Source: Selaginella moellendorffii (lineage: Eukaryota; Plantae; Lycopodiophyta). From it: a stretch of 64,000 nt of DNA. The stretch's first letter is position 1, and the number at the start of each line of letters is the position of its first letter. The position numbers and the translations under genes were made by a program. The notes below the pieces were generated by a model, which did not search any database, was not told the origin of the DNA, and saw only the letters and a program-made list of their open reading frames with translations. The stretch lies in assembly GCF_000143415.4 (NCBI RefSeq), contig NW_003314339.1, forward strand, positions 737,751 to 801,750. Direction: 5' to 3'. Shown here one piece after another: positions 135-62,709 of the stretch.

Positions 135-158
135 AAGCTCTATTTCGTTAAAGTGGGA
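135..158 (+). repeat. Terminal inverted repeat (transposase-side end), copy 1
   Basis: AAGCTCTATTTCGTTAAAGTGGGA. Confidence 0.95.
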
Positions 159-794
159 TTTATTCAGTAAAATGGGACTAGGTACAAATTTTCAAGTATT
201 TGAAAATGACGTGAAATTATATGTTTTTTGTCCAGGGGCTAGACATATCTGGGGCATGGTGACTAGCGCGGTGACCTTATGTCCAGACTGAGTCCATCTA
301 GTTGTATAATAAATCTCATTGTCAAGGTGAACAAGCCGAATCTGAAGCTAAAGAAGAGCGATGGCATGCGCGCACACACTATTTGTTTGTTCATTGAGCG
401 TGTGGTGAGCTTTCCAAGATGAACATCATTCCTATTAGCCAGACATATAACTTAATGGTGAGAACATTTAGATATTATTCAATGTTATCTTTTTCTAACG
501 AATCTAATTGTGAAGGTGTAGCAAGAGGCATTGCTAGTCTGGAGAAGTCATTTAACTCATTTGACCCTTAGTGTATTTTCATGAAACTAAATAACATTCA
601 TATTATTAAGGAATTTCTCTAGTACCTTTTTTTTACGACATAGAGGCTTGCATTTCTTTCAAAGGTGATTTAGTAAAAGGCCTGAGGGCACATGCCATTC
701 TATTTCTCAGACCGGTATTAAGATATACTAGTGCAAAGGGAAAAAGGTATTTGGTGATCAAGTAAATGGCATGAGGGCACACGCCATTATAAGC

Positions 795-1154
795 CTAAGC
801 GCTAGTGGACACCTCCTTTTTGGTACTCTCAGCGGTACTATCATCCTTCTCCGGGTCAATTGTTTTGCTTTGGATTGTTGTCTCTGACGTTACTGGGGCG
901 TTCTCGATAGTTGTTAATGTTGCCGTTTGTTCAGAAAAATGATCACCTGGAGTATAGTACGGGGAGTTTGGAAGACTTATATATTCTACATCTTCACGTA
1001 TCTCCTTGTCCGTCTCCTTTTCTGCCTCACTTACAGATTTTGTGCTTGCCATGAGAACGCTCTTCACCCTAAAATATGGAGTTCGTTGTGTTATAAAAGG
1101 AAACCAACACACACGCTGCAAGGGAATGATGGTACATAAAGCACGTAAGCCCAC
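795..1154 (-). CDS. Small acidic/Thr-rich ORF or exon of unknown function downstream of the transposase
   Basis: ORF is open in all three copies (29990-30349, 62896-63255), with a TTTTAG acceptor-like site upstream of MASTKS. The copies are young, so conservation is weak evidence. Confidence 0.25.
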   Translation of the reverse strand: MGLRALCTIIPLQRVCWFPFITQRTPYFRVKSVLMASTKSVSEAEKETDKEIREDVEYISLPNSPYYTPGDHFSEQTATLTTIENAPVTSETTIQSKTIDPEKDDSTAESTKKEVSTSA

Positions 1155-1340
1155 AATATGGGTTTATGTGCCATTAATATGGGCCACACGCCATATTATT
1201 AGATTTATGCACGTGTGATTGGTAAATGCATATGTCACATCATCTTTGTTTTACCTCACACACTATATCAAGCCTCCTCTGATTCAGATTCGGATTGTTC
1301 ACCTTGAAATAAAATACATTAGAAACTTTGTAAAGGAATA

Positions 1341-4300
1341 TTAATGAATCTCACCTTGAACCCGAGTTATGAATGCTCTTGCTGCATCTCTTGCATGGTC
1401 TGGCAAGGTGATGGTGGCACTCTGCTTCCGCATCCAACCATGCACAACATTATCCACCGATATGCTCATGCTGGGATCCCTTGGATTCAGCACCCATCTC
1501 TTTTCTAGGCAATCCTTCGTATATCCGGAACTTGGCTTGAACCACTCCACAGTTACATTGAAGGAGTTAGTTTCCGCGTCCTCCTTTGCATCAGTGATGC
1601 AGCACCCCACCCATATCATTTGTTTTTTATTACTGGGTCTGACAAGCACGACCATTCCTTTGCAGACCTGTACTGGATTGAATGCTGAATCCGGCTTCTT
1701 GTTCCTCGGCCCACAATAGTGATCCTCAACATCGTTATCTGTCACTGCATTTCCAGAGGACATTGTTCCGCTACTATCTGGTGCTCTGGGTTCTGGCCAA
1801 AAGGACTCTTCCAATTCTTCATATACAACCGGCCCATTTTGGATAGCAGATATAATCTTCTCCCAGTATTCAAGCAAAGGCTTGCACCTCTTAAAATAGG
1901 ATTCTCCACCAAACACCAACCCCCTCTTCCAGAAGGCAATATGCTGTCTAATCCCGGCCACTATACTTTCCTGGTCTTTGAGTCCATCCGGGTGCATCGG
2001 CCGTGGGGAACCCTGAGGAATCATAGGTTCCCCAGTTATGGGATCTCTTTTGAAGAGTTCAATGCCGTCCACTGGCAGCCACACTGTGTCCCATTCTCTC
2101 ATCTTGTACCTCATCACTGGAGCACCGTCACACATGCTGAAATGAAACTGAAGAGGCTTGGAGTGGCCAATCAGCGTTTCGGATCCATCCCTGATGTAGC
2201 CTCTTACAAACCCCTTAAAGTCTGGAACCTCTGTCAGAAGTGCAGCTTCAACAGTGCCTTTGATGCAATTTTGGAATTCATCGTAGAGTTGTGGGAGGGT
2301 GAGGACATTGGATCGCCGGAGGGACTCTGCCAGGTGACTGAACATGGCATCGACGTCTTCATGAGTGTGCCCAACCATGAGAAAGCCAAGTGTAACCGTT
2401 TCAAATATGCCTTTGGCAACAAGCATCGCCAAGTACGCGAAGACGTACATGTTTTTGTTCTCACTGCCAGCATTGTCTGTTTGGAGCAGAAGATGGGGTG
2501 GAAGGCCACATCGGCCGCAAGAACTTCCTTGAGATTCTGCTTCGTTTGGATGAGGCTGTGCATTCACCGGGCGACCAGCCTCGTCGGAATGGCATGAGGC
2601 CTCACGTGATAACCCTACAATCTGACGGCCAACATATTCACTGGGATGGCATGGGGCCCCACGCGATACTGCAAGCCTTTGCTCCTCCTCCAGCTGAACC
2701 CTGTATGGGGTTCGATCGACAAGGGCCTTATGCAAGGGTTGGCCGTTCAGCTCAGTCTGCGCACTTTGCAGAGACCTTAAGTGTTTTGCTAGGGACGCAA
2801 TCATCATGTTTGCACCCCCGCCACCCCATAGAGGTACAAAGAAGTTCCCATAGTTCTGGGCACCATGCCCATGAGCGATTATGCCAAACAAAGACACAGG
2901 CAGCTGCATGGATGAAGAGATTGCCTTGGGGGCAGGATTGAGTCGAGGTAAGCACGTCTTTTTCTGGTCCATTTTGTCGTGGATGATGCAGAGGTAAGAG
3001 TCAGGTCTCTCCATGGAGAGAATCCTGTTATGATAATATGCAGTCCTGCAGCTTCTCTGCTCGATGTTGTGGTCGAGCCGCCTTCTAACCAACGTCTCTC
3101 GCTCTTGAGCGCTGCAAGAATTCTTCGACAAAGCCATTTTGATAGCAGTGCACTCGTCACACTTTGAAAAGCTGGAGTACTTTCCTATACTCACATCCCT
3201 GAACCTGTTGCTCCACAATCTACTAAATCTAGATTGGCTCAGCTTCCTGTAGCCATTACTCTGGAGTTCCCGATTCACATCTTCCAATATGGCCCCCTTG
3301 GTATACATGGAAGGGAGAACTCGTTGGGTGTCTCGTGTTCCATCTTCCAAGAGGCGGGTTTTATGTGGTTGCTGCTCGCTACATGTCTCGACAAACCTCT
3401 TGAAGATTGCCTCTCCATATACAACATGACCCCTGGTTTTGTGCGTACCGTCGTTCCCATGGACTGCCTGTTGAACCCTTTGTTCCTCGAACTCAGTTTT
3501 GATTCTGTAGAATGTGGTTCGAGGGACTCCATAAATGATTCTCCATGCCTTCATGCAGACCAAACCCCTCTGGAAGACCATGCCCCCCACCTGATGTTCT
3601 GAAGCATCAACAGATGACCGTAATGCCTCATACACAAAATTGCGAGCTGCCTTCCAGGACAATGTCTTGTATCTTGCTCTCTCCTCTTCAATAGCATCCC
3701 AATCAGCATGTTGACAGCACCTCCTCTTGCAACAAGCAACTGTCGAGACCATTCGAACCTCCATCGCCATTTTCTGCCTTTTCGGTTCGTTGCTCAGATC
3801 CCTTTGGCTGCGCTTTAGGAAGGTGTACTTTCTTTTCCCATGAAGAGATGTTCTGTCATCAGTTGTAGTGGTGTTTGATTGTGAATCCTTCACATTCTCA
3901 AACACTAAGTGCCTCAATTTCCACCGCACAATGCGTCCACTAGTCAGATTGTTTTCTTCTGTGTCAACAACCTCTAAAATCGCAACTCCAATATCATCCC
4001 AGCCCAATTCTTGATTAGCAACCGCATCTCTTGGATCGACAACTGTGGCTAAGCCCTCAGCTACCACCTCCCCCTCGGGGTTGTTTAGAAACACCTTTGC
4101 CTGAATCCATGTAGCACGGTTTTTAAGATCCACGGAGGGAACATGCGTCGCACTTGCGCTGTCCCCAACATCTGCTTTCTTCTGAAGATTTTTCAAGGCA
4201 ACAACAACATTTACCCCGATGACCATCTCTCCTTGTTCAATAGCGACCACATTCCCATCGAAGACAGTCTCTACTGATACAGCAGCATTGCCTTCCCCAA

Positions 4301-4409
4301 GCCTTTGACAGTGTATAACAAAGTTCCGATCCATAGACACAAGGGTCCCTTTTGCAACTCTCTTCCCACCATTCAAAATGTAAACCTTTTCCCCAACCCT
4401 GAAGGCCAT
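1341..4409 (-). CDS. Sola-like DDD transposase, 1022 aa (probably ends in a spliced last exon 1268-1302, GEQSESESEEA*)
   Basis: Motifs CCxxxCC, VCxxAWxxIYG, HGN, FSKCDEC, IIHDKMDQ, QTDNAGSENKN and FLMVGHTHEDVDAMFS, typical of Sola-type transposases. Lies inside a TIR element with 4-bp TSDs. GT-AG intron at 1303-1354. Confidence 0.85.
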   Translation of the reverse strand: MAFRVGEKVYILNGGKRVAKGTLVSMDRNFVIHCQRLGEGNAAVSVETVFDGNVVAIEQGEMVIGVNVVVALKNLQKKADVGDSASATHVPSVDLKNRATWIQAKVFLNNPEGEVVAEGLATVVDPRDAVANQELGWDDIGVAILEVVDTEENNLTSGRIVRWKLRHLVFENVKDSQSNTTTTDDRTSLHGKRKYTFLKRSQRDLSNEPKRQKMAMEVRMVSTVACCKRRCCQHADWDAIEEERARYKTLSWKAARNFVYEALRSSVDASEHQVGGMVFQRGLVCMKAWRIIYGVPRTTFYRIKTEFEEQRVQQAVHGNDGTHKTRGHVVYGEAIFKRFVETCSEQQPHKTRLLEDGTRDTQRVLPSMYTKGAILEDVNRELQSNGYRKLSQSRFSRLWSNRFRDVSIGKYSSFSKCDECTAIKMALSKNSCSAQERETLVRRRLDHNIEQRSCRTAYYHNRILSMERPDSYLCIIHDKMDQKKTCLPRLNPAPKAISSSMQLPVSLFGIIAHGHGAQNYGNFFVPLWGGGGANMMIASLAKHLRSLQSAQTELNGQPLHKALVDRTPYRVQLEEEQRLAVSRGAPCHPSEYVGRQIVGLSREASCHSDEAGRPVNAQPHPNEAESQGSSCGRCGLPPHLLLQTDNAGSENKNMYVFAYLAMLVAKGIFETVTLGFLMVGHTHEDVDAMFSHLAESLRRSNVLTLPQLYDEFQNCIKGTVEAALLTEVPDFKGFVRGYIRDGSETLIGHSKPLQFHFSMCDGAPVMRYKMREWDTVWLPVDGIELFKRDPITGEPMIPQGSPRPMHPDGLKDQESIVAGIRQHIAFWKRGLVFGGESYFKRCKPLLEYWEKIISAIQNGPVVYEELEESFWPEPRAPDSSGTMSSGNAVTDNDVEDHYCGPRNKKPDSAFNPVQVCKGMVVLVRPSNKKQMIWVGCCITDAKEDAETNSFNVTVEWFKPSSGYTKDCLEKRWVLNPRDPSMSISVDNVVHGWMRKQSATITLPDHARDAARAFITRVQGEIH

Positions 4410-4775
4410 TCTGAAAGTGTAGAAAAGAAGTTAAGACCATACAAAAAATAATTGGAGAATGGCCTAAATCATAACATACCAAACAACCTCAATAGCATGA
4501 GGCCACATGCCATTATTCAAACATGCTATTGACACCCACGTGAAATTTCGCATTCACAAAATTGGCATGAGGCCTCATGCCATCTTGATATACACACAGC
4601 TGCAGGCAAGTAAAAACATACATGACAATACGCTAGCCATGAAATTGCAAGGGCCCAAGATGGCATGTGGCCTCATGCCATTTCTAAATGTGGTCCTAAG
4701 CCATTCCATGGTGAACATACCAGGAAGCACAAGTGCCGAATATCAAGAGGAAGCGGTAGCCACACCAAAGACAGT

Positions 4776-4850
4776 GCCGCTCGCAACACCGCAACTACTC
4801 GTAGCGCCGCTCACAACACCGCAACTGCTCGTAGCGCCGCTCGCACAAAC
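4776..4850 (+). repeat. 30-bp tandem repeat (~2.5 units) upstream of the transposase
   Basis: GCCGCTCRCAACACCGCAACTRCTCGTAGC repeated; also present in copies 2 and 3. Confidence 0.8.
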
Positions 4851-5321
4851 TGCCACTCGCATAAACTGCCGCTCGCAATGGCGCTCGCAATGCCGCAACC
4901 GCTCGTAGACGCATAAACCACAGCCCACAACGCCGCTTACACAAGCAGCGCTCACTGCGCTCAGCGGAACCAAGAACACGGCGCACAAAAATGATAGACC
5001 TAGGAATGAGTTCGAGAATTCAAAAATAACACACGCTTGAACGTCACATCAAATCCTCTGACAAACCAGATCTTATGATTCCTCTGACAAATTTCAAACT
5101 GAGTAGCTTCTAGACTTTGCTGTCGGAGGTTGAACTTTGTCACATCATGTCCTTGCCTCGATCCAGCTGTGCCATGTCAGTGATTCGAACTTTGCCATGC
5201 CATGTCAGCGATCCGCGCCAAGATTATTCGCCGTGTAAAGGAATAATTACGCTGTGTGTGTACGTCCATTTATGGCAATATAAGGCCACACGCCATTCAA
5301 AGAATAATGCTAGTCGAGCAT

Positions 5322-6590
5322 TTTTTGGTGCATTTTTGGGTTCAAAATTGCATGAGCCCACACGCTATAAAGTTTACCTGTACCAAAAATAGAAACAGCT
5401 TTATTTACTTGGGAATTTAAGTGGTTGAGGCATTTTTAAACTTACAAACACATGCCCTACTTACATTCCTTTGGTTGCCTAAAATTCAAAAATATTATAA
5501 ACCTTTCTTTTTGCATTTTCAATGTTTTCAATTATGGTTTTTGATTTTCGTAGGACCAGCCTAGTAATCTATTTGCATCCCGTCATGTTTATAGCTAGCT
5601 TTCGTTTGTCCCCTTCGCTAGCCTGAGATACATCTGCTCGGCATCTGCCTCTTACAGCATTTGCCCAGAAAGGGCATCTTTCTTCACGCAGCATTTGCCA
5701 CATGTTTAGGGTTTAGGGTTTAGGGTTTAGCAATTCAGTAGCTTGATAAACATGCAAATACAAAACTTGATGCAAAATCCTTTGATATGTCACAATGCCC
5801 CTAGGACCATAAACACATTTCAATAGAGAGGGTCCTTTCATTTCATAACTCCTTACGTAGATCTTGGTGAAACCAGAGTTAGTGAAGTTAGTTTCTTGTG
5901 ATCCCGCATCTGATTGTGATGTCCCTTTGCAGTTTCGATGGAAAGGTCAATGCACACCAAACTGTAAAATCTTGGAGCAAAATAACGGTCGGATCTATGG
6001 CAAATGCCCCTGAAACATTGTAAGGCTCGTGTGGTCTCATGTGGTGTCCGATCGAGATGCTTCTTTGCAGGGTCATCAAGAAAGACATTGTATACCATTC
6101 TGTAAAATCTAGTTGGATCTCCAGAAAACTCAAAAAAATCTCGCGCGTGTCAGAATATCCTAGGAATATACTCCTATGTGCCCCTGAAAATGGCATGCGG
6201 CCCCACGCCATTCAAGAGATAATGCCAGATGACGCCGAGAATTTTTTGGTGCATTTTTTGGGTTCAAAATTGCATGAGCCCACACGCTATAAAGTTTATC
6301 TTTGCCAAATAGAGAAAAGTTTATCTGTGTCATGTGAAGTAGTTACAGTCCTTTGTGCTCGGCATCTGCCTCTTGCAGCATTTGCACTGAAAGGGAATTT
6401 TTCTCCATTCAGCATTTGGCCCTGAAAATGGCATGCGCCCACACGCCATTCAAGGAATAACGCCACAGGACGCCTGGATTTTTGGGTTTAAAATGTTTAG
6501 GGTTTTTTGGGTTTTTTCAAAATATTTTGGGTCCAACGTTTTTTGGGTTTCTTTGGTTCAAAATTGCATGAGCCCACACGCTATAATATT
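5322..6590 (+). repeat. Three dispersed ~50-bp direct repeats in the divergent intergenic region
   Basis: TTGGGTTCAAAATTGCATGAGCCCACACGCTATAA-like block at ~5335, ~6258 and ~6553. Confidence 0.8.
5705..5730 (+). repeat. Plant telomere-type (TTTAGGG)n tract / telo-box cluster
   Basis: TTTAGGG x3 plus TTTAG; one unit longer in copy 3 (~56726-56759) and one unit mutated in copy 2 (~32923-32948). Confidence 0.85.
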
Positions 6591-7299
6591 GATTTGAGAG
6601 AAAAATAGAAACAGATAGAATTTCTTTATTTAGCTGAACATCTGCCATTTTTGGAAATACAAGATGCTTTGGAATATCCAATCATGCATGGTATAAATAT
6701 AGCGAGGGTATTAAATGATATCCCAATCATGATCTTTCTTTTGGATTTCGCGTGCATGCAGTCCGAGGAATGATGACGTTGCGGATTTCTTTTGGATTTT
6801 GCGTGCTTGCATGCGCGCGGCAATCCAGAAATTAATGGTGGCGCCCAAGTTCGAGGAATGATGACGTGGCGGGATTACCAACCGTTGTGACATTTCGCGC
6901 GTGTGAGGTTAGGTTTTGCATTTTGCTTCGTACTCGCGCTCGCGCTCGCATCACACTCGCGCTCCCGCTCGCATCGCGCTCCCACTCGCGATCACGCTCA
7001 CTTCTCTACAGGTTTCTCGTGTGCATCGGCGTCCACTCGTGCTTGCATCACACTCGCGCTCGCATCGCGCTCGTGTGCATCGGCGTCCACTTCAAGACAC
7101 ACCCAGTTTGTAACTTCGCCGCCAACTCCGCCGCCCACTCCACCACCCACACGCAGCCCACTTGGCGTCCCGGGAGATTTCAACACCACTCTCCAACTGT
7201 AAGTGGCAGAGTAGCCTTGCTGCTACGATCCGCTGCACACACAGTGCACATTCGCCAGCGAGTCCGGCCTCGATTGTCACGGCCTCCATTCGGCTTCAA

Positions 7300-10200
7300 A
7301 TGGTAAGTCTTTTAGACCAAGTAGAAAATGGCATGAGGCCACATGCCATTCAGTAGCAACATTGGCATGCACCGATTGGGCTCTCGAGTGCAGTCCGGTT
7401 ACAGATGGCGTGTAGCCTCACGCCATCTTAGGATGCAGCCTCAAGACATCTGATGCAGTGGTGAATGGCGTGTGGCCTCACGTTATTTCCAGCTGCTAGC
7501 TTTTCATCTGTCAGCTCTAATTGTTGTGCATTTTTGAACAGGCGAGGAATTGCGTTCTTCTTCCAGCCACTGTCAATGTGGATGCAGAGAAGGGGGAGGA
7601 GCTCACCAGTTGGACTTTCGGGATGGAAGGCGAGGATCTGATGCTGTACAACACAGATGGTGGGAGAAAAGAATGCATGGGGATCCTCATCCAAGTGACA
7701 GACACTCCATGCAGTTCCATGCAAGAATATGGACTGGCACTTGTGGTAGAGACAGCGTCCGCCTTCAAGATCCACCTTGCACATCCTAGCGGCTTCCCGG
7801 AGGGGGGCAGCAGCTATGAGGAATTCCTAGAGGGAGCTAGGGAGAGGTTGTCCAGGAGGCCCACAATTTCAAAGACGCTGCGGGTCTATGAAGATCACAT
7901 GGAATCCACGGACCTCACCTGCGGCGATGTTCAAAAACTATATTCCAACATTGAGCCGTTGAGAGTGCCTCCAGTTTGCGAAGCGAAGGGGAAGGGGGTC
8001 GATCTGGAAACTACCCCGAAGCAGAAAAGGGTGGTCAAGCTCAAGCCGACGTCCGACTCTGCTGCTCCAAAAAAGAAGCTACTCGGTGATGCCATTGCCT
8101 CGGGTTCGAACACTACACCCACCAAAAAGAAGAGCCGCAAAGAGCAGAAAGAGCAAGAAGAGGCAGCAAAAATCGTCGCAGATAATAGTACTTGTTACTA
8201 TTCCAACAAAGTATATACAATCGACGTGAGCCGTATCGAGATCCAAAGCAAATACAACCACAGGCTAGTATCTGATGAGTGGGTGGAGAAACTGAAGCAG
8301 AAGATGCTGGCAAGTCCAGTAACACCCGACATCGCAGACGTGATCCCCTACTACCAAACAATGAAGGGCGAGACGAGGTTTCCAGACTTGATCAATAGGA
8401 AGGTGTTGGACGATCAGAACATCCGGTTCTATGCCGTCTCCAGGCAGCATTCTAGCTTGGCGATGCAACAGATAGTTGTGGATATTATGGTGGGCGAGGA
8501 GGTGAAGAAAGTCTTCAAGACAAGAGTTGTCCACCTGATAAAAGGCAACTCGCCCCTCCGATCTATCATATACATCTCCCACGCGCAGAATGTCAAGCAA
8601 GAAACGTGCTACAAATCGGGTCTGCACGAGACATTGGCATGAACACGGAAGCTCTGGGTTCAACTGAAGAAGCCACAAAAACCAGGACAAGGACGTGCAC
8701 TAGCAACTAGCGCCTGGCAGGTAAGCCTCGTTGCATGTGGCATAGCATGTGGCCTCACGCCATTTCCATTGCAGGAATTCTCGAGTCTTCTCTCGAAAAC
8801 ACTGGGGGTCAATGACACACTCAGCATCCATAACATTCTACTCGCGACAAAAGTTGTTTTTGACAAATGGGTAGATGTGCTAAGGAGGTACCATGACGGG
8901 GAGTTGCTAAACTCAATGGGTGTGGAGGACGGCCGGAAGCCCAATGATTTGAAGCTCAACGCCTTGCGTTTCTCGCGGTCTCTAGACGACGACGACCTTT
9001 TGACAGTGGCTAATACTCTTCTACGTAGTGAAGTAGTCTTCAACAAGACCAAAATGACTCCCGGCCATATTGTGACATACGAGGACTTGTGCACGACTTT
9101 GAGAGCTCGTGCGCTATTGAAGGATTGGATCTTCGAGCAAGTGGCCGTGGCGAGGGTGAGCATCGACACCACGCAAGAGATGATGGAAGAGCTGGACTTG
9201 TCAAATGAAGACATCGACGAGTACGTGAAGGGGGCCCCCAAGTTCATCGATCTGCTGCGGGATGCCACGAAAAGTAAAGCTGAGAAGTTGGATCAGTATC
9301 CAAATTTCATTAAGAGGGATGTCGACCGCCGGCTTCAGAAACAGCTCGACCCCGCAGCAGAGGCCTATCGAGAACCTTACCGGGTATACGTGAATTCGGA
9401 TGAGGATCAAAGGTGGAGGAGCATCGTTTCCCGCGGAGATGAGCAGGTCAAGAACATCTTTTGTGTGATGGACTTCACAAACGAGGAGATCACTCATGTA
9501 GACGAAGTCAGCTCCATCATTGACTTAATGGTGGGACTTGCGGAGGTGGAATCTTCAGTCCACTATATGATCTACGACTCCGAATCCTATCACAAGTTTT
9601 GGAAGGCCTTGAACGAGGTGAAGGATCGGTTGAAAGGCAAGGAGATGCGGGAGATCCATGGGATAATGGCTAAGAAGAAGATACCGACGAATGTCCGCAT
9701 CTTCACAGTCGCCCTTGTTATTGGTCCTGCAGCAGAGTGGGACTGGAGTGACTTCCCAGCTTCGTTCAACAAAGCCGATCGAATTGATCTGAGGGAGGTC
9801 AATTTACCCGTGCCTGAGGAACTGAAGACGGCTATGGAGCTTTCGAATCCAAGGAAAGCTCCAGGTGCAGCATGGGAAATGCTCAGCTGGGTCTTCAACG
9901 CAATAGCGGGTGACTCCAAGGGCAAATGCGTTGTCGAGTACAACTGCGGCGGACTATTCTTTCGAGCCGCACTACTCAAGGGTGTCCCGTGTGTTGCGGT
10001 GACAAACTCCATTGAAGAGGTGACTTCAATGGAGCATATAATTACAGTTGCCAAAGAAAAACAGTATCTTCTCTACGAACCTGGTGAGTACGCACTTTAA
10101 GTTTAAATGTTATCTCACAAGCTCTGTATGCAGGTGCGTGGCCACCCCCAGATGCTGAAACGGCGTTAACAGCTACTGATGTTAGGCCGAGGTCACAACC

Positions 10201-12908
10201 TGCACAAGGTAAGGTCACGTGAGGCCTCACGCCATTTTGATTATAGATCGTTGTGAATATTCAGACACGAGGACTGAAAAGCGCACTGGTGGCGCGTCGA
10301 AGAAGGACAAACAGACAAGCAATAGGAAAAAAGGAGGTACAAATTATATTTGCAATGGCGTGTGGTCTCATGCCATTCCTTGCAGGAGACACTTCTTCAA
10401 AGGCAAAACAGGCAAGCACCAGCCAAGCTCAAACTGACAGTGGTCATAAAAAGCGAAAGCACGTTGGACAGTCGTCGGGATCAGAGGCGTTTGATTCGAA
10501 AAGGAAGAAGGGCAACGAAAAGATGATAGGTAATGCCTCGCGGTTATGGCGTGTGTGCTCATGCCATTCATTGCAGATCAAGGGCTGAGTGAAAGGAGCC
10601 AGTCACCACCTTCTTACTCAGATTCCTATGGCGGACTCCCCTTCCCCAATCTCAATGGAGAGGTACAATGGATGAGGGATGCTTTTCAAGTCAGGGCCAC
10701 GTTTTTCTCATCTCGTCGTCTTCGAAGGGTGCAAGAACGTGCAGAAACCATGTTAAGACAGTCGGGTGAGGATACGGTCCTAGGTCACGCACTAAAACAG
10801 GCTATGGATGTCTTGTATTTTGAGATGGAGACTCGGCTAGATGATTTTTCCAAGATGGTCCTGGAAAAACAAGCCATCCAGCCTGAGCAGCCTATGGAAG
10901 AAATGCAAGAGGGGGATGAGGAGCCAGAGAAAGATAATGAGCAGGAAGAGCAGAAGGACGAAGAGGAGGACAAAGAAGAGGAGGACGAAGAAGAGGAGGA
11001 CGAAGAAGAGGAGGACGAAGAGGACTTGGATGGTCCTCACAATGGTGACGATCACAATAACGACGATGACGATGATGACGATGATGGCCAGCCTGAGGTG
11101 GCCAAAGAGCAGCGGAGGAAGGTCATACAAGACAAACCATCAGGTAAATAATAGTACATCCATTCCTAACCTTTTACCATTTCTAACATTGTCCATGTAG
11201 GTCGCAGAAGAAATGGTAAGTAGAGATTATTCAGTTGAATTAAGATACAAACTCTAGCCTTTAGTGTCGAGGAAGGATAGTGCCAAGCAAGGGTCGAAAC
11301 GTATGTCCAATCCTTCAGAATCAGCAGTGCGCCCAAGTGATATCGGTCCTAGTTCCTCAATAGCAGTTGATGGTAAATACAGTATAGTCGATTCAATGTG
11401 CTAATGAGTTTGTTTTTAGTAGCCAGTAGGGAGGATACCATCTCAATTGAAGGGAGATATTTGGACATGCATATGGATCCGCCAGTGGACTCTACTTGCC
11501 TGCAAGAGTCATCAGAGCTGGTGGAGGCTACTATCCATATCAACGCCAAGCAAGCTGACCACGCTCCACTTGATGCTACCCATACCACTGAGTCAATCTT
11601 GTCCACATATCCAACTGACGGTGACCAGGCGCCATTGGACCCGCATGAGGCCGCCCCAGCCGCCGAGCCGGTCGTATCCTCATTTCCAACGTGTGCCCAA
11701 TCGTCTGACTACGCGCCGTTGGAACCTCCCTACACCGCCCCTGCTGCCTGTTCGGTCATGTCCACTTTGCCAACGGAGGCACCAGCTGAAATGGCGTGTG
11801 ATCACACGCCATCGGAACCACCCCATGCCACTGTTGAGCCAGTTGTACCAGAGTCTACAGCTGAAATGGCATGTGCCCACACGCCATCGGATGCGATTGA
11901 CCCCACATTGCAGAGGAGAGTATTTCCGCCCTTCACGTTTCCTCGACAAAAACCCTCTGAACGACCATCGGGAGCACCATTCGCTAATATTGTAGATGGT
12001 AAAATTGACTTGTACCATTTTTTATGCTAACGCATTTCATTTCAGAGTCACGGCGAAAGTACTGTATCGTTTTTGATCTGAACGGTGTCCTTTTCTCCCA
12101 TGAGCGTGGCTCGTCCTCAAATGTCACTGCACCTTCCAAAGCCTGCGGTCGCAAGTTGGTCAAAAGAGACAGATTCACATTAATCACACGGGAGAAACTG
12201 CGGGATCTAATAATGACCATGCGACACTTAAAACAGAGGGCCGGGTTCAATTTGCAATTGGGAGTTTGGACATCCATGATGCGCCACAATGCATTAACGT
12301 TGCTACAGATGATGCACGATCAGACGCGAGTAATATTACCATTTGACTTTCTCCTAACGCAGGAGGATTGCTTGACTATGGTCCATGTGAGGGGTAGCAA
12401 GCCCATCTTCGTCAAGGCAGAGGCTGTAGTGATGAACCGGACTGCTAGGTCAAGTGAAATCCTCATCATCGATGACTCGCCGATTAAAACTGCAGCGAAC
12501 ACGCACACATATGCAGTGCACCCCATCTCTTGCAGTATGGAAACTAGGGAGAAGAAACCGTATGTTCTGGGGGACCTTGCAAAATGGCTTGAAGCGATGG
12601 TGATAGAGAACCGGCCAGTCCAGGAGGTGGCTGCAGAAATCAACCAAATGGCAGATGGAACGGTATATCAAAAGCCATTTGATCGGACAGACACCAGTCA
12701 TCATTTATGGCATGTATATTGTCTAGCCAAGCACTATCCGCATCTCCATAATCTGCTCAACCGGATGGGTTCTTCGACCACTGAACATGAGCGTGGACGT
12801 ATTAGAGAAGAGATGGCATTACTATTGGGTTTAAATCCTGATAGTGTGGAGAGTGATGAAATTCCAAGATTATTGTATAGGCGTTGGAGGCAAAAAATAA
12901 CAGTCTGA
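7300..12908 (+). pseudogene. 11-exon cargo gene (~1637 aa): ParB/DGQHR-like + degenerate amino-MTase-like + acidic linker + FCP1/NIF-like HAD phosphatase; one premature stop at 8640-8642
   Basis: Exons 7300-7302, 7542-8720, 8775-10083, 10134-10208, 10265-10336, 10386-10529, 10577-11143, 11201-11215, 11265-11372, 11420-11998 and 12046-12908 join in frame through GT-AG introns. The TGA at 8640 is CGA in copies 2 and 3. The first exon is the least certain. Confidence 0.82.
12046..12908 (+). CDS. Terminal exon encoding an FCP1/NIF (NLI-interacting factor)-like HAD phosphatase domain
   Basis: CIVFDLNGVL (motif I), GVWTS (motif II), KPIFVK (motif III), ILIIDDSPIKTAAN (motif IV). Confidence 0.85.
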
Positions 12909-13315
12909 GATGGCATGTATTTATTTAAAAATGTAACTTATTATGGCATGGGGTTCCATGCCATTGTATTAATATTAAAAGACAATTCTTTGAGAGGATT
13001 TGCATTATACTAGAAGTGTTACAGCATGTTATTGGAAGTCTACGAAGTTGTTTTATTAATAAGGGGAAAGTAAAGATTGAATGGGGACTTGGGCTCCACC
13101 TAGACTCGGAGCAACTGAGCCAATATTAAAAGGATGGAAAGAAATTGGACGACGATGACAAGGAGAAGAGAGAGGTGAAGCAGTGAGAAGTGATTGAGTA
13201 GACATTTCCTTGTTTAAAATAAAATGGCATGTGCCTCAATGCAGTTGAATTTTGTTATATTTATATACTATATAAAGGTTTGGAAACCTTATTTTACAAG
13301 TGGGATAATGACAAT

Positions 13316-13339
13316 TCCCACTTTAACGAAATAGAGCTT
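13316..13339 (-). repeat. Terminal inverted repeat (cargo-side end), copy 1
   Basis: TCCCACTTTAACGAAATAGAGCTT. Confidence 0.95.
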
Positions 13340-29329: not shown

Positions 29330-30994
29330 AAGCTCTATTTCGTTAAAGTGGGATTTATTCAGTAAAATGGGACTAGGTACAAATTTTCAAGTATTTGAAA
29401 ATGACGTGAAATTATATGTTTTTTGTCCAGGGGCTAGACATATCTGGGGCATGGTGACTAGCGCGGTGACTTTATGTCCAGACTGTGTCCATCTGGTTGT
29501 ATAATAAATCTCATTGTCAAGGTGAACAAGCCGAATCTAAAGCTAAAGAAGAGCGATGGCATGCGCGCACACACTATTTGTTTGTTCATTGAGCGTGTGG
29601 TGAGCTTTCCAAGATGAATGTCATTCCTATTAGCCAGACATATAACTTAATGGTGAGAACATTTAGATATTATTCAATGTTATCTTTTTCTAACGAATCT
29701 AATTGTGAAGGTGTAGCAAGAGGCATTGCTAGTCTGGAGAAGTCATTTAACTCATTTGACCCTTAGTGTATTTTCATTAAACTAAATAACATTCATATTA
29801 TTAAGGAATTTCTCTAGTACCTTTTTTTTACGACATAGAGGCTTGCATTTCTTTCAAAGGTGATTTAGTAAAAGGCCTGAGGGCACATGCCATTCTATTT
29901 CTCAGACCGGTATTAAGATATACTAGTGCAAAGGGAAAAAGGTATTTGGTGATCAAGTAAATGGCATGAGGGCACACGCCATTATAAGCCTAAGCGCTAG
30001 TGGACACCTCCTTTTTGGTACTCTCAGCGGTACTATCATCCTTCTCCGGGTCAGTTGTTTTGCTTTGGATTGTTGTCTCTGACGTTACTGGGGCGTTCTC
30101 GATAGTTGTTAATGTTGCCGTTTGTTCAGAAAAATGATCACCTGGAGTATAGTACGGGGAGTTTGGAAGACTTATATATTCTACATCTTCACGTATCTCC
30201 TTGTCCGTCTCCTTTTCTGCCTCACTTACAGATTTTGTGCTTGCCATGAGAATGCTCTTCACCCTAAAATATGGAGTTCGTTGTGTTATAAAAGGAAACC
30301 AACACACACGCTGCAAGGGAATGATGGTACATAAAGCACGTAAGCCCACAATATGGGTTTATGTGCCATTAATATGGGCCACACGCCATATTATTAGATT
30401 TATGCACGTGTGATTGGTAAATGCATATGTCACATCATCTTTGTTTTACCTCACACACTATATCAGGCCTAATGAACCATATCACATGTGCGCACATGCT
30501 ATATATATGGAGAAGTATTATGCAAGGATAGAAAAATTCAATGCATGATTGTGGAGAGCAATGGCATGAAGCCACATGCTAAATAACATTTTAGAGAAAG
30601 AATTAAAATAAAAACATGCAAACAGTACTAAGTGGACCAAGACTTAGAAGTGCACAATTGAATGAGGTATTTCTAATAAATATTTCACTCACCTCATATA
30701 GGAATGGCTACCACTCTCAAATGGCGTATTGCCTCATGCCATCACCTCGCAATTTGTTATAACAATCCGATGAATTCATATTCAGCTTGTTCACCTTAAA
30801 CTTTAAGTAAGATTTGCTAGAACAACTAAGAATTTATACTTGTTATTTGTATCATCTCACCTAGGAATGGCGTAAGGCCACATGCCATCACGCCTCCTCT
30901 GATTCAGATTCGGATTGTTCACCTTGAAATAAAATACATTAGAAACTTAGTAAAGGAATATTCATGAATCTCACCTTGAACCCGGGTTATGAAT

Positions 30995-31446
30995 TGTAAG
31001 CGACTATATTTTCCATTCTACTTTAGTCACTTAACCACACCTCTGACCACTTGGAGGAGTCTCATTCACAACCTCCATAAGTCCAATCCAGGACTTGGGA
31101 CTTGCTAGCCCCGAGAATGGCATCCATGCCACTCAACATTTGCACTTGGTCCAAGTGCTCCACGTGTCCGATCCCATGACCGACACTCAAAGGTACCACC
31201 GACATAGCAGCCCGTTACGCTAAGGCTATGCCCAATCACCTTTGCCACACTGGTAGTCCAATACCACTTGCATCACCGACATAGCAGCCCGTTACGCTAA
31301 GGCTATGCCCAATCACCTTTGCCACACTGGTAGTCCAATACCACTTGCATCACCGACATAGCAGCCCGTTACGCTAAGGCTATGCCCAATCACCTTTGCC
31401 ACACTGGTAGTCCAATACCACTTGCATCACCGTCTTGGCTCTCCAA
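30995..31446 (-). mobile_element. Truncated family B LTR with a 77-bp triplication, replacing most of the transposase
   Basis: Starts TGTAAGCGACT; repeat units begin at 31199, 31276 and 31353; joins the transposase 5' remnant (31444-31628) through CAA microhomology. Confidence 0.88.
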
Positions 31447-34400
31447 CTCCAATATCATCCCAGCCCAATTCTTGATTAGCAACCGCATCTCTTGGATCGA
31501 CAACTGTGGCTAAGCCCTCAGCTACCACCTCCCCCTCGGGGTTGTTTAGAAACACCTTTGCCTGAATCCATGTAGCACGGTTCTTAAGATCCACGGAAGG
31601 AACATGCGTCGCACTTGCGGAAGCCATTCTGAAAGTGCAGAAAAGAAGTTAAGACCATACAAAAAATGATTGGAGAATGGCCTAAATCATAACATACCAA
31701 ACAACCTCAATAGCATGAGGCCACATGCCATTATTCAAACATGCTATTGACACCCACGTGAAATTTCGCATTCACAAAATTGGCATGAGGCCTCATGCCA
31801 TCTTGATATACACACAGCTGCAAGCAAGTAAAAACATACATGACAATACGCTAGCCATGAAATTGCAAGGGCCCAAAATGGCATGTGGCCTCATGCCATT
31901 TCTAAATGTGGTCCTAAGCCATTCCATGGTGAACATACCAGGAAGCACAAGTGCCGAATATCAAGAGGAAGCGGTAGCCACACCAAAGACAGTGCCGCTC
32001 GCAACACCGCAACTACTCGTAGCGCCGCTCGCAACACCGCAACTGCTCGTAGCGCCGCTCGCACAAACTGCCACTCGCATAAACTGCCGCTCGCAATGGC
32101 ACTCGCAATGCCGCAACCGCTCGTAGACGCATAAACCACAGCTCACAACGCTGCTTACACAAGCAGCGCTCACTGCGCTCAGCGGAACCAAGAACACGGC
32201 GCACAAAAATGATAGACCTAGGAATGAGTTCGAGAATTCAAAAATAACACATGCTTGAATGTCACATTAAATCCTCTGACAAACCAGATTTTATGACTTC
32301 TCTGACAAATTTCAAACTGAGTAGCTTCTAGACTTTGCTGTCGGAGGTTGAACTTTGTCACATCATGTCCTTGCCTCGATCCAGCTGTGCCATGTCAGTG
32401 ATTCGAACTTTGCCATGCCATGTCAGCGATCCGCGCCAAGATTATTTGCCGTGTAAAGGAATAATTATGCTGTGTGTGTACGTCCATTTATGCCAATATA
32501 AGGCCACACGCCATTCAAAGAATAATGCTAGTCGAGCATTTTTTGGTGCATTTTTGGGTTCAAAATTGCATGAGCCCACACGCTATAAAGTTTACCTGTA
32601 CCAAAAATAGAAACAGCTTTATTTACTTGGGAATTTAAGTGGTTGAGGCATTTTTAAACTTACAAACACATGCCCTACTTACATTCCTTTGGTTGCTTAA
32701 AATTCAAAAATATTATAAACCTTTCTTTTTGCATTTTCAATGTTTTCAATTATGGTTTTTGATTTTCGCAGGACCAGCCTAGTAATCTATTTGCATCCCG
32801 TCATGTTTATAGCTAGCTTTCGTTTGTCCCCTTCGCTAGCCTGAGATACATCTGCTCGGCATCTGCCTCTTACAGCATTTGCCCAGAAAGGGCATCTTTC
32901 TTCACGCAGCATTTGCCACATGTTTAGGGTTTAGGGTTTCGGGTTTAGCAATTCAGTAGCTTGATAAACATGCAAATACAAAACTTGATGCAAAATCCTT
33001 TGATATGTCACAATGCCCCTAGGACCATAAACACATTTCAATAAAAAGGGTCCTTTCATTTCATAACTCCTTACGTAGATCTTGGTGAAACCAGAGTTAG
33101 TGAAGTTAGTTTCTTGTGATCCCGCATCTGATTGTGATGTCCCTTTGCAGTGTCGATGGAAAGGTCAATGGACACCAAACTATAAAATCTTGGAGCAAAA
33201 TAACGGTCGGATCTATGGCAAATGCCCCTGAAACATTGTAAGGCTCGTGTGGTCTCATGTGGTGTCCGATCGAGATGCTTCTTTGCAGGGTCATCAAGAA
33301 AGACATTGTATACCATTCTGTAAAATCTAGTTGCGATCTAACGGTTGGATCTCCAGAAAACTCAAAAAAATCTCACGCGTGTCAGAATATCCTAGGAATA
33401 TACTCCTATGTGACCCTGAAAATGGCATGCGGCCCCACGCCATTCAAGAGATAACGCCAGATGACGCCGAGAATTTTTTGGTGCATTTTTTGGGTTCAAA
33501 ATTGCATGAGCCCACACGCTATAAAGTTTATCTTTGCCAAATAGAGAAAAGTTTATCTGTGTCATGTGAAGTAGTTACAGTCCTTTGTGCTCGGCATCTG
33601 CCTCTTGCAGCATTTGCACTGAAAGGGAATTTTTCTCCATTCAGCATTTGGCCCTGAAAATGGCATGCGCCCACACGCCATTCAAGGAATAACGCCACAG
33701 GACGCCTGGATTTTTGGGTTTAAAATGTTTAGGGTTTTATGGGTTTTTTCAAAATATTTTGGGTCCAACGTTTTTTGGGTTTCTTTGGTTCAAAATTGCA
33801 TGAGCCCACACGCTATAATATTGATTTGAGAGAAAAATAGAAACAGATAGAATTTCTTTATTTAGCTGAACATCTGCCATTTTTGGAAATACAAGATGCT
33901 TTGGAATATCCAATCATGCATGGTATAAATATAGCGAGGGTATTAAATGATATCCCAATCATGATCTTTCTTTTGGATTTCGCGTGCATGCAGTCCGAGG
34001 AATGATGACGTTGCGGATTTCTTTTGGATTTTGCGTGCTTGCATGCGCGCGGCAATCCAGAAATTAATGGTGGCGCCCAAGTCCGAGGAATGATGACGTG
34101 GCGGGATTACCAACCGTCGTGACATTTCGCGCATGGTAGGTTAGGTTTTGCATTTTGCTTCGTACTCGCGCTCGCACACTCGCGCTCGCATCGCGCTCCC
34201 ACTCGCGATCACGCTCACATTCGCACTCATCTACCTTCTCTACAGGTTTCTCATGTGCATCGGCGTCCACTCACGCTTGCATCACACTTGCACTCGCATC
34301 GCGCTCGTGTGCATCGGCGTCCACTTCAAGACACACCCAGTTTGTAACTTCGCCACCAACTCCGCCGCCCACTCCGCCACCCACACGCAGCCCACTTGGC

Positions 34401-34532
34401 GTCTCGGGAGATTTCAGCGCCACTCTCCAACTATAAGTGGCAAAGTAGCCTTGCTGCTACGATCCACTGCACACACAGTGCACATTCGCCAGCGAGTCCG
34501 GCCTTGATTGTCACGCCTCCATTCGGCTTCAA

Positions 34533-37500
34533 ATGGTAAGTCTTTTAGGCCAAGTAGAAAATGGCATGAGGCCACATGCAATTCAATAGCAACATTGGCA
34601 TGCACCGATTGGGCTCTCGAGTGCAGTCCGGTTACAGATGGCGTGTAGCCTCACGCCATCTTCGGATGCAGCCTCAAGACATCTGATGCAGTGGTGAATG
34701 GCGTGTGGCCTCACGTTATTTCTAGCTGCTAGCTTTTCATCTGTCAGCTCTAATTGTTATGCATTTCTGAACAGGCGAGGAATTGCGTTCTTCTTCCAGC
34801 CACTGTCAATGTGGATGCAGAGAAGGGGGAGGAGCTCACCAGTTGGACTTTTGGGATTGAAGGCGAGGATCTGATGCTGTACAACACAGATGGTGGGAGA
34901 AAAGAATGCATGGGGATCCTCATCCAAGTGACAGACACTCCATGCAGTTCCATGCAAGAATATAGACTGGCACTTGTGGTAGAGACAGCATCCGCCTTCA
35001 AGATCCACCTTGCACATCCTAGCGGCTTCCCGGAGGGGGGCAGCGGCTATGAGGAATTCCTAGAGGGAGCTAGGGAGAGGTTGTCCAGGAGGCCCACAAT
35101 TTCAAAGACGCTGCGGGTCTATGAAGATCACATGGAATCCACGGACCTCACCTACGGCGATGTTCAAAAACTATATTCCAACATTGAGCCGTTGAGAGTG
35201 CCTCCAGTTCGCAAAGCGAAGGGGAAGGGGGTCGATCTGGAAACTACCCCGAAGTAGAAAAGAAGCTCAAGCCGACGTCCGACTCTTTTGCTCCAAAAAA
35301 GAAGCTACTCGGTGATGCCATTGCCTCGGGTTCGAACACTACACCCACCAAAAAGAAGAGCCGCAAAGAGCAGAAAGAGCAAGAAGAGGCAGCAAAAATC
35401 GTCGCAGATAATAGTACTTGTTACTATTCCAACAAAGTATATACAATCGACGTGAGCCGTATCGACATCCAAAGAAAATACAACCACAGGCTAGTATCTA
35501 ATGAGTGGGTGGAGAAACTGAAGTAGAAGATGCTGGCAAGTCCAGTAACACCCGACATCGCAGACGTGATCCCCTACTACCGAACAATGAAGGGCGAGAC
35601 GAGGTTTCCAGACTTGATCAATAGGAAGGTGTTGGACGATCAGAACATCCGGTTCTATGCCGTCTCCGGGCAGCATTCTAGCTTGGCGATGCAAGAGATA
35701 GTTGTGGATATTATGGTGGGCGAGGAGGTGAAGAAAGTCTTCAAGACAAGAGTTGTCCGCCTGATAAAAGGCAACTTGCCCCTCCAATCTATCATATACA
35801 TCTCCCACGCGCAAAATGTCAAGCAAGAAACGTGCTACAAGTCGGGTCTGCACGAGACATTGGCACGAACACGGAAGCTCTGGGTTCAACTGAAGAAGCC
35901 ACAAAAACCAGGACAAGGACGTGCACTAGCAACTAGCGCCTGGCAGGTAAGCCTCGTTGCATGTGGCATAGCATGTGGCCTCATGCCATTTCCATTGCAG
36001 GAATTCTCGAGTCTTCTCTCAAAAACACTGGGCGTCAATGACACACTAAGCATCCATAACATTCTACTCGCGACAAAAGTTGTTTTTGACAAATGGGTAG
36101 ATGTGCTGAGGAGGTACTATGACGGGGAGTTGCTAAACTCAATGGGTGTGGAGGACGGCCGGAAGCCCAATGATTTGAAGCTCAACGCCTTGTGTTTCTC
36201 GCGGTCTCTAGACGACGACAACCTTCTGACAGTGGCTAATGCTCTTCTACGTGGTGAGGTAGTCTTCAACAAGACCAAAATGACTCCCGGCCATATTATG
36301 ACATACGAGGACTTGTGCACGACTCTGAGAGCTCGTGCGCTATTGAAGGATTGGATCTTCGAGCAAGTGGCCGTGGAGAGGGTGAGCATCGACACCACAC
36401 AAGAGATGATGGAAGAGCTGGAGTTGTCAAATGAAGACATCGACGAGTATGTGAAGGGGGCCCCCAAGTTCATCGATCTGCTGCGGGATGCCATGAAAAG
36501 TAAAGCTGAGAAGTTGGATCAGTATCCAAATTTCATTAAGAGGGATGTCGACCGCCGGCTTCAGAAACAGCTCGACCCCGTAGCAGAGGCCTATCGAGAA
36601 CCTTACCGGGTATACGTGAATTCGGATGAGGATCAAAGGTGGAGGAGCATCGTTTCCCGCGGAGATGAGCAGGTCAAGAACATCTTTTGTGTGATGGACT
36701 TCACAAACAAGGAGATCACTCATGCAGACGAAGTCAGCTCCATCATTGACTTAATGGTGGGACTTGCGGAGGTGGAATCTTCAGTTCACTATATGATCTA
36801 CGACTCCGAATCCTATCACAAGTTCTGGAAGACCTTGAACGAGGTGAAGGCTCAGTTGAAAGGCAAGGAGATGCAGGAGATCCATGGGATAATGGCTAAG
36901 AAGAAGATACCGACGAATGTCCGCATCTTCACACTCGCCCTTGTTATTGGTCCTGCAGCAAAGTGGGACTGGAGTGACTTCCCAGCTTCGTTCGACAAGG
37001 CCGATTGAATTGATCTGAGGGAGGTCAATTTACCTGTGCCTGAGGAACTGAAGATGGCTATGGAGCTTTCGAATCCAGAGAAAGCTCCAGGTGCAGCATG
37101 GGAAATGCTCAGCTGGGTCTTCAACGCAATAGCACCTGCTTCCGACTCCAAGGGCAAATGCGTTGTCGAGTACAACTGCAGCGGACTATTCTTTCGAGCC
37201 GCACTACTCAAGGGTGTCCCGTGTGTTGTGGTGACAAACTCCATTGAAGAGGTGACTGTAAGGGACTAAATTTTCCATTCTACTTTAGTCACTTAACCAC
37301 ACCTCTGACCACTTGGAGGAGTCTCATTCACAACCTCCATAAGTCCAATCCAGGACTTGGGACTTGCTAGCCCCGAGAATGGCATCCATGCCACTCAACA
37401 TTTGCACTTGGTCCAAGTGCTCCACGTGTCCGATCCCATGACCGACACTCAAAGGTACCACCAACATAGCAGCCCGTTACGCTAAGGCCATGCCCAATCA

Positions 37501-40500: not shown

Positions 40501-41885
40501 ATCCATATCAACGCCAAGCAAGCTGACCACGCTCCACTTGATGCTGCCCATACCACTGAGTCAATCTTGTCCATATATCCAACTGACGGTGACCAGGCGC
40601 CATTGGACCCGCATGAGGCTGCCCCAGCCGCCGAGCCGGTCGTATCCTCATTTCCAACGGACTCAACGTGTGCCCAATCGTCTGACTATGCGCCGTTGGA
40701 ACCTCCCTACACCGCCCCTGCTACCGGTTCGGTCATGTCCACTTTGCCAACGGAGGCACCAGCTGAAATGGCGTGTGATCACACGCCATCGGAACCACCC
40801 CATGCCACTGTTGAGCCAGTTGTACCAGAGTCTACAGCTGAAATGGCATGTGCCCACACACCATCGGATGCGATTGACCCCACATTGCAGGGGAGAGTAT
40901 TTCTGCCCTTCACGTTTCCTCGACCAAAACCCTCTGAACGACCATCGGGAGCACCATTCGCTAATATTGTAGATGGTAAAATTGACTTGTACCATTTTTT
41001 ATACTGACGCATTTCATTTCAGAGTCATGGCGAAGGTACTGTATCGTTTTTGATGTGAACGGTGTCCTTTTCTCCCATGAGCGTGGCTCGTCCTCAAATG
41101 TCACTGCACCCTCCAAAGCCTGCGGTCGCAAGTTGGTCAAAAGAGACAGATTCACATTAATCACACGGGAGAAACTGCGGGATCTAATAATGACCATGCG
41201 ACACTTAAAACAGAGGGCCGGGTTCAATTTGCAATTGGGAGTTTGGACATCCATGATGCGCCACAATGCATTAACGTTGCTACAGATGATGCACGATCAG
41301 ACGCGAGTAATATTACCATTTGACTTTCTCCTAACGCAGGAGGATTGCTTAACTATGGTCCATGTGAGGGGTAGCAAGCCCATCTTCGTCAAGCCAGAGG
41401 CTGTAGTGATGAACCGGACTGCTAGGTCAAGTGAAATCCTCATCATCGATGACTCGCCGATTAAAACTGCAGCGAACACGCACACATATGCAGTGCACCC
41501 CATCTCTTGCAGTATGGAAACTAGGGAGAAGAAACCGTATGTTCCGGGGGACTTTGCAGAACGGCTTGGAGCGATGGTGATAGAGAACCGGCCAGTCTAG
41601 GAGGTGGCTGCAGAAATCAACCAAATGGCAGATGGAACGGTATATCAAAAGCCATTTGATCGGACAGACACCAGTCATCATTTATGGCATGTATATTGTC
41701 TAGCCAAGCACTATCTGCATCTCCATAATCTGCTCAACCGGATGGGTTCTTCGACCACTGAACATGAGCGTGGACGTATTAGAGAAGAGATGGCATTACT
41801 ATTGGGTTTAAATCCTGATAGTGTGGAGAGTGATGAAATTCCAAGATTATTGTATAGGCGTTGGAGGCAAAAAATAACAGTCTGA
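34533..41885 (+). pseudogene. Cargo gene, copy 2 (several stops, small deletions, solo LTR insertion)
   Basis: Colinear with 7300-12908; FYAVSGQHSSLA retained; stops at ~35255, ~35523, ~37006, ~39745, ~40060 and ~41598. Confidence 0.88.
37257..39053 (-). mobile_element. Family B solo LTR, TSD GTGAC
   Basis: GTGAC at 37252-37256 and 39054-39058; TG...CA ends. Confidence 0.92.
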
Positions 41886-62600: not shown

Positions 62601-62709
62601 TGTTGTGCATGGTTGGATGCGGAAGCAGAGTGCCACCATCACCTTGCCAGACCATGCAAGAGATGCAGCAAGAGCATTCATAACTCGGGTTCAAGGTGAG
62701 ATTCATTAA
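59641..62709 (+). pseudogene. Sola-like transposase, copy 3, with a TGG>TAG stop at 62185-62187
   Basis: Near-identical to 1341-4409; ORFs 59626-62187 and 62236-62709 are in the same frame. Confidence 0.9.

Follow-up and report, generated by a model that had tools for sequence, protein, structure and literature searches.

The 64,000-nucleotide stretch of the lycophyte Selaginella moellendorffii analysed here (positions 737,751 to 801,750 of the forward strand of contig NW_003314339.1, assembly GCF_000143415.4; hereafter the window) contains three copies of a large transposable element that carries two genes in a head-to-head arrangement. One is a transposase gene, whose product belongs to the DUF7869 family and displays the motifs HDKMD, QTDN, and GHTHEDVD. 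The other is an accessory gene, the main subject of this work, which is predicted to encode a multidomain protein combining ParB-like, methylase-like, and FCP1/NIF-family HAD domains (Table 1). A 28-nt terminal inverted repeat (TIR) is found at six places, corresponding to both ends of each copy, and 4-bp target-site duplications (TSDs) flank copies 2 and 3, with copy 1 being without a matching TSD at its right end. This anatomy fits the Sola1 type of transposon, with DUF7869 being presumably the Sola1 transposase family.

Table 1. Coordinates of the element copies, their genes, and the predicted domains (position 1 is the first nucleotide of the window)
Feature	Position	Strand	Remarks
Accessory gene	7300..12908	+	11 predicted exons, 1,637 codons, stop at 8640-8642
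Predicted exons 1-6	7300-7302, 7542-8720, 8775-10083, 10134-10208, 10265-10336, 10386-10529	+
Predicted exons 7-11	10577-11143, 11201-11215, 11265-11372, 11420-11998, 12046-12908	+
N-terminal beta-rich stretch and basic linker	7542..8189	+	weakly conserved; W, G, Y, K invariant in 9 rows, 14-20% identity
ParB/Srx-fold domain (model-supported)	8190..8615	+	Box II GQHS; RQHS in copy 1 (codon at 8442)
All-helical conserved domain, candidate DNA-binding part	8622..9347	+	split by intron 2; homologues 20-27% identical
Degenerate beta-class N4C/N6A methyltransferase-like domain	9372..10083	+	motif IV MDFT ~9468; motif I YNCGG ~9939
Polar/acidic low-complexity linker	10134..11998	+	~520 residues, seven exons; 70% polar/charged, 19% hydrophobic
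FCP1/NIF-family HAD domain	12060..12506	+	motif I DLNGV; Pfam NIF 26.7 bits, cut-off 21.8
Palindrome ATGGCRTG-N6-CAYGCCAT	361..13245		22 bp, 24 copies; 11 perfect; 13 outside genes, 7 intronic, 4 coding
Copy 1, TIR DNA transposon (Sola1-type)	135..13339		13.2 kb; self-BLAST (three copies), TIRs
Left / right TIR arms of copy 1	134-161 / 13313-13340	+ / -	28 nt, 96% complementary
Transposase gene	1341..4409	-	open in copy 1, 1,022 codons from first Met; DUF7869 E 5.8e-42
Copy 2	29330..42327	+	TSD CTAG; internally deleted; insertion ~37257-39053
Copy 3	49141..63915	-	TSD TAGT; insertion ~57184-58765

The spliced accessory gene of copy 1 is 4,914 nt long, i.e., 1,637 codons and a terminal stop, with the first exon contributing the ATG and a single internal stop codon (codon 368) interrupting an otherwise open frame. 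The original prediction had joined the pieces of this gene through ten GT-AG introns, and indeed all ten have these boundaries and keep the frame. Nine of them are 47-57 nt in length, and nine bear a YTVAY branch-site-like motif 14-24 nt from the 3' end, as against 33 of 127 exonic YAG sites. Eight successive phase-1 introns hold the frame through to the last exon, which begins 9 codons upstream of the DLNG motif of the HAD domain, has no Met before that motif, and holds in-frame Met codons. Intron 2 is itself in frame and stop-free; its 18 codons face a gap in the spliced Selaginella model P0019, and several homologues called on unspliced DNA terminate at or near its position. The remaining in-frame stops lie at codons 350 and 1543 of copy 3 and at codons 162, 254, 730, 989, 1099, and 1543 of copy 2. 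The claim that such stops could be repaired from another copy also stands, since for each of them at least one of the other two copies has a sense codon; further, a contig from another sequencing run carries a sense codon where copy 1 has its codon-368 stop. Copies 2 and 3 additionally show frameshifts, insertions, and damaged splice acceptors, and all three copies in the window are dead and drifting. The 96-99% identity between them in self-BLAST comparisons indicates that the element family was recently active.

In the portion of the RNA-seq data scanned (~12% of three runs, 9.2 million records each), 198, 121, and 257 reads per run matched the gene region, nearly all of them falling within 40 nt at 7196-7235, and the contigs from two runs presumed to be RNA read through intron boundaries unspliced. 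A single transcript is thus a prediction, above all over the seven small linker exons. The 40-nt piece, which likely lies in the 5' UTR, occurs in all three copies (also near 34429 and 55250) and matches an abundant RNA (~100-240 reads per run), with the reads having loose ends at both sides. It is presumably the 3' end of the large-subunit rRNA, in the same sense as the accessory gene; a scan with Rfam neither called this piece nor gave a match anywhere in the element.

Folds, homologues, and active sites of the predicted protein

Sequence searches with Pfam, PHROG, NCBIfam, and PDB yielded no match for the ParB or methylase parts of the protein, the profile libraries recognizing only the NIF domain, so the folds given here for the former two are model-predicted. 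The structure model was built on 26 alignment rows and compared with 48,161 representative chains. Its ParB-like part, modeled mostly at pLDDT 84-92, retrieved PadC (Z 9.4, rmsd 3.2 over 100 aa), KorB and SerK (both Z 8.2), and sulfiredoxin (Srx; Z 7.7), all of them within the top 8 of these chains. A second structure comparison recovered Caulobacter ParB (7bm8; Z 10.1, rmsd 2.4 over 97 aa), with the scores for this part overall lying at Z 9.4-10.4. Foldseek searches placed Noc, ParB, and Srx near the top of the PDB matches, yet at E 4e-3 or weaker, and found phage ParB proteins in the viral set at E 7.6e-5, and an Atlas model of a Riccia homologue also met ParB clusters below the naming bar. 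A ParB/Srx fold is thereby supported for the region in which it had been anticipated.

The methylase-like part is modeled mostly at pLDDT below 60, and in this low-confidence part the structure matches were CcrM (Z 8.4, rmsd 5.0 over 184 aa), M.RsrI (7.8), MboIIA (7.7), and PvuII (7.5); the methylases among its best matches (CcrM, RsrI, MboIIA, HpyAVI, and PvuII) are all of the beta class. A profile of the corresponding parts of five homologues scores the window part at 26.1 bits, against 5.7 bits for the best of 500 shuffles, and motif IV precedes motif I, as in the beta class (PMC10406627). The methylase-like module of the original prediction hence finds backing in a weak model together with a sequence profile, which support a beta-class methylase fold. 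The intervening helical domain yielded a model with pTM 0.74. Whole-model alignments to ParB and Noc extend into it (model residues 13-311) at rmsd 10-13; its lack of a fold match is not evidence for a new fold. The FCP1/NIF-type HAD module is the one part with a profile match above the cut-off (Table 1). The motifs described earlier, namely NHRLVS, SGQH (SRQH in copy 1), and the four HAD-like motifs DLNG, WTS, K, and DDSP, with DLNG standing for DLDE, were all located; the HAD motifs are present in all three copies, motif I reading DLNGV in copies 1 and 3 and DVNGV in copy 2.

Word-indexed searches at near, longer, and shorter lengths returned no homologues. A full HMMER scan with a 642-residue core of the protein recovered 17 proteins, of which 15 were kept and two (P0003 and P0008) dropped as repetitive and unrelated. 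The named homologues come from Selaginella moellendorffii, Calypogeia fissa, and Riccia sorocarpa; metagenome scans, a viral scan, and a phage tblastn search retrieved no DNA neighbourhood of a homologue. Within one gene model, the Riccia protein KAL3675584.1 follows the order of parts of the window protein, from ParB through helical and methylase to NIF, and pairwise BLAST against the window protein gave E 1e-12 for the ParB part, 3e-4 for the helical part, and 0.004 for the methylase part. In this homologue PF01555 (N6_N4_Mtase) is matched at E 5.8e-4, below the cut-off, and NIF above the cut-off. The proposed fusion of ParB-like, methylase-like, and FCP1-like modules thus recurs in a second plant as a gene model, itself a prediction.

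All three active sites look eroded. Box II of the ParB-like domain reads GQH[S/T] rather than GxxR in all 14 alignment rows, and in a published study (PMC12704722) the proteins tested no longer bound nucleotide once the Box II arginine had been changed. An invariant Arg and an invariant Asn close to the ParB pocket in the homologues leave some doubt as to whether nucleotide binding would have been lost. The equivalent of methylase motif IV (MDFT in the window) retains the Asp in 9 of the 9 rows that reach it (the window and five clusters) and has PPY in none, DPPY or SPPY being the active site in CcrM and N4CMT (PMC10406627). The putative SAM-binding motif I, with YNCGG in the window and YGCGG, INTGG, and FFSGG in homologues, is one residue short relative to the FxGxG of M.RsrI. 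As they are common to diverged homologues, the ParB and methylase losses are features of the family and not the decay of the window copies. In the HAD domain, DLNG replaces the DxD of motif I, with the second Asp changed to Asn and the nucleophile Asp, Thr, Lys, and DD retained. Active CTD phosphatases are defined by DxDx(T/V) at motif I. We take the combination of DLNG with DDSPxKxxxNP to mark an uncharacterised plant and fungal NIF subfamily of the C1271.03c-like type, distinct from the CTD phosphatases proper. A search of solved FCP1/SCP chains gave no match at E<=10.

A 22-bp palindrome array across the element

The original prediction named neither the host element nor a second conspicuous feature, an array of 22-bp palindromes distributed across it (Table 1). 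Allowing at most 3 mismatches, copies 1, 2, and 3 contain 24, 25, and 24 palindromes, of which 11, 8, and 11, respectively, are perfect; none occurs in the 23 kb of the window outside the elements, and 100 simulated sequences had at most 2. They are depleted in coding DNA, which accounts for 60% of the element and 4 of the 24 sites (p 1.4e-5), and 11 of the 24 are in intron 1 or in the interval that separates the start codons of the two genes. The right arm of the palindrome doubles as a branch-site-like sequence in introns 2, 5, and 6. The four coding palindromes (2589-2667 and 11791-11887) are in frame, with two in an insertion between the catalytic motifs of the transposase and two in exon 10.

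The two variable positions of the palindrome are independent (A-C 11, A-T 6, G-C 4, G-T 2; Fisher p 1.0). Of the 48 half-sites, 45 have G at one loop position and 47 retain C5, with position 6 being A in 26 and G in 21; of the two possible CpG-decay changes, just one is common. Together, the independent variable positions, the conserved loop base, and the retention of C5 point to a double-stranded binding site rather than a hairpin, and the pattern is what one would expect where a dimer reads duplex DNA. The acceptance of T in place of C further suggests that methylcytosine would be tolerated. The palindromes do fold as hairpins, at z of about -3 to -4; a hairpin role is less favoured, as the arms do not covary.

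Possible roles of the accessory protein

We propose, with a probability of about one half, that the accessory gene accompanies the transposase as the second gene of a cut-and-paste transposon of the Sola1 type and that its product is likely a non-enzymatic, sequence-specific DNA-binding pseudoenzyme scaffold that regulates its own element. A phage-type ParB-methylase fusion is the probable source of the ParB-helical-pseudomethylase half, two subunits of which would pair on the 22-bp palindrome, each contacting one half-site. As C or T is accepted at the single variable CpG position, methylcytosine would probably be tolerated as well, thereby making silenced copies reachable. The NIF domain, borne on a long flexible linker, could serve as a phosphoprotein-binding or weak phosphatase module for a putative partner, and would recruit proteins of host transcription or chromatin at the shared promoter and in the introns, akin to VANC on VANDAL elements. 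The net outcome would be either anti-silencing or self-repression.

Several observations weigh against this proposal. No read of the RNA-seq subset (~12% of three runs) and no contig crossed any splice joint of the gene; the Selaginella models among the homologues end after the methylase part and are without the ParB front and the NIF domain; and the NIF domains of the window and Riccia show no direct match (BLAST E 0.69, with 33 shuffles scoring equally). The helical domain, when folded alone, matched neither a ParB chain nor a helix-turn-helix (HTH), its best match being at Z 4.3. The pN/pS values of copies 2 and 3 relative to copy 1 (0.83 and 0.74) give no sign of selection at that depth. 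The palindromes might, moreover, be bound by the transposase or a host factor rather than by the accessory protein. The first three of these points, along with the in-frame Met codons of the last exon, would suit a rather unlikely arrangement in which the HAD exon forms a gene of its own or was picked up as a passenger, leaving a real protein that is ParB-methylase-like only. Such an arrangement sits poorly with the run of phase-1 introns that maintains the frame into the last exon, the want of a Met between the start of that exon and DLNG, and the Riccia model, which places the ParB-methylase and NIF parts in one frame, though it too is a prediction. The broken state of the three copies and their near-neutral pN/pS could be taken to mean that the gene is a functionless remnant carried along by the element. 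This we hold to be very improbable: the homologues, from liverworts and a lycophyte, retain the motifs and one intron position at just 20-30% identity, the reading frame has stayed almost open along its full length, and the copy-1 stop is a sense codon in the contig from another run.

Two further alternatives concern what a palindrome-binding protein would do. It might be a transposition helper like TnpA of CACTA elements or the bacterial TnsC/D, which by binding the palindromes folds the 13-kb element, pairs its ends, or picks targets, with no part in transcription. TIRs of just 28 bp on so long an element, palindromes that span 361 to 13245, and two insertions into one retroelement protease region, separated by ~120 bp, would all be in keeping with this; the palindromes are, however, not concentrated at the ends, clustering instead around the shared promoter and intron 1, and the NIF domain would fit such a role poorly, making it an unlikely option, if the one among the rivals to which we give the most weight. 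Taken to its strong form, the original prediction would become a working ParB clamp, gated by nucleotide, which is loaded at the palindromes and slides, coupled to an active phosphatase of the RNA polymerase II CTD (or to 4mC/6mA marking). True ParB, Noc, and KorB proteins are among the best fold matches, the invariant Arg and Asn near the pocket could substitute for the missing residue, the HAD domain still has its nucleophile Asp, Thr, Lys, and DD, and the palindromes resemble parS and OB sites. Against these stand the absence of the Box II Arg in all 14 rows and of PPY in all nine, the Asn at the second Asp of DxD, and the want of an HTH match or of a match to solved FCP1/SCP chains. We accordingly consider this form doubtful, and neither the 'DNA clamp' nor the 'Pol II CTD-type' label finds support as it was put: the former meets S/T at the Box II Arg position and a helical domain with no HTH match, and the latter meets DxN in place of DxD.

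A more far-reaching extension, which we entertain only as a long shot, is that a nucleotide-gated protein loads at its own methylation-tolerant palindromes and spreads over the 13-kb element, constituting a eukaryotic parS/ParB-like system in transposons of non-seed land plants. Its phosphatase-type module would then reset RNA polymerase II or chromatin, thereby lifting silencing from the element's own DNA alone, and the presence of the palindrome in intron branch sites would allow feedback on splicing.

Several known systems resemble the one proposed here. The presence of a ParB-methylase gene on a Sola1 element is already published for the brown alga Ectocarpus (PMC12477816), where Sola1-1_Ec32, 21.5 kb long with a 282-bp TIR and a 4-bp TSD, encodes a 1,104-aa accessory protein described as a methyltransferase, with ParB-like and N4C/N6A methyltransferase domains, that was proposed to bind and modify its own element. 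The two elements share large size, the Sola1 type, the 4-bp TSD, and an accessory gene with ParB and methyltransferase domains on the strand opposite to the transposase; the window element differs in its eroded catalytic motifs and added NIF domain. The main text of that paper makes no mention of FCP1 or a palindrome, and its 5 supplements none of FCP1 or phosphatase. ParB-N6_N4_Mtase fusions, in which a beta-class amino-methyltransferase likewise comes after the ParB fold, are common in phages (PMC12704722; PMC4738411) and likely represent the ancestral architecture. Relative to these, the window gene is intron-rich, resides in a plant transposon, has lost GxxR and DPPY, and has gained the helical domain, the linker, and the NIF domain. 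The ParB/Noc/KorB clamps share the fold of the N-terminal domain and a dispersed palindromic site on a mobile element (PMC11790492; PMC12704722), and KorB regulates genes of the plasmid RK2 at a distance (PMC11790492). In contrast to them, the window protein lacks the Box II Arg, a detected HTH, and a ParA partner, and is just 9-16% identical.

Among eukaryotic elements, VANC on VANDAL is an element-encoded accessory anti-silencing protein whose short motif has accumulated in intronic, intergenic, and terminal non-coding DNA (PMC5735166). It offers a works-like model for an accessory protein with a dispersed motif, the protein itself being unrelated: VANC is a DUF1985/DUF287 protein of the Mutator superfamily, and its motif is a non-palindromic 9-bp sequence in tandem repeats (PMC5735166). 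DUF3723 of the fungal Starships, which are tyrosine-recombinase elements, is another conserved accessory protein of eukaryotic mobile elements (bioRxiv 10.1101/2021.12.13.472469). It is the nearest language-model-feature cluster for the Riccia homologue P0015 (0.87), a lead only, with homology not established. The HAD domain of the window protein resembles the FCP1/SCP (NIF) HAD phosphatases in its Pfam match and the order of its four HAD motifs, and is set apart by DLNG in place of DxDx(T/V).

In the largely open-access literature searched, we did not find the NIF fusion, the eroded sites, or the palindrome array in a land plant. The published algal counterpart of the basic design lowers the surprise of the present element and widens its relevance. 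The mechanism is understood for few accessory proteins of transposons, and hardly any ParB-type DNA regulators are known outside the prokaryotes. The element offers both parts for a direct test, viz., a candidate protein and a sharply defined 22-bp site, and suggests a route by which a phage-type ParB-methylase could have become a pseudoenzyme scaffold that acquired a eukaryotic phosphatase-like module.

Copies, derivatives, and neighbouring repeats

Beyond the window, three other sequencing runs have sequence in all 30 bins of the element and reveal internally deleted forms. A contig joint between 178 and 13298 in run X5 may represent a miniature derivative holding the element ends only, and one between 606 and 6501 in run X3 a derivative without the transposase; each rests on a single contig with short sides. 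About 416 bp past the transposase stop are missing in copies 1 and 3 (1267-1275) and present in copy 2 (30471-30886) and a contig of run X3.

The left flank is common to copies 1 and 3, which lie in inverted order with 99.3% identity over 5.2 kb (50-5284 versus 58766-64000), and the right end of copy 1 (13340) abuts a repeat with no TSD; this marks a rearrangement or duplication rather than independent insertions. One Gypsy-type gag/protease region received both TSD-bearing insertions (~29205-29329 and 49141), and TAG is part of each TSD, suggestive of either a target preference or local hopping. The shared promoter region of the element includes three and a half units of the plant telomere repeat TTTAGGG at 5705-5729. 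A repeat with hexamer arrays of the GGACTC type occupies 13340-14735, with similar sequences at 17171-24543, 37257-39053, and 57184-58765; it is present in many copies, two of which are inserted in element copies 2 and 3, and is probably LTR-derived.

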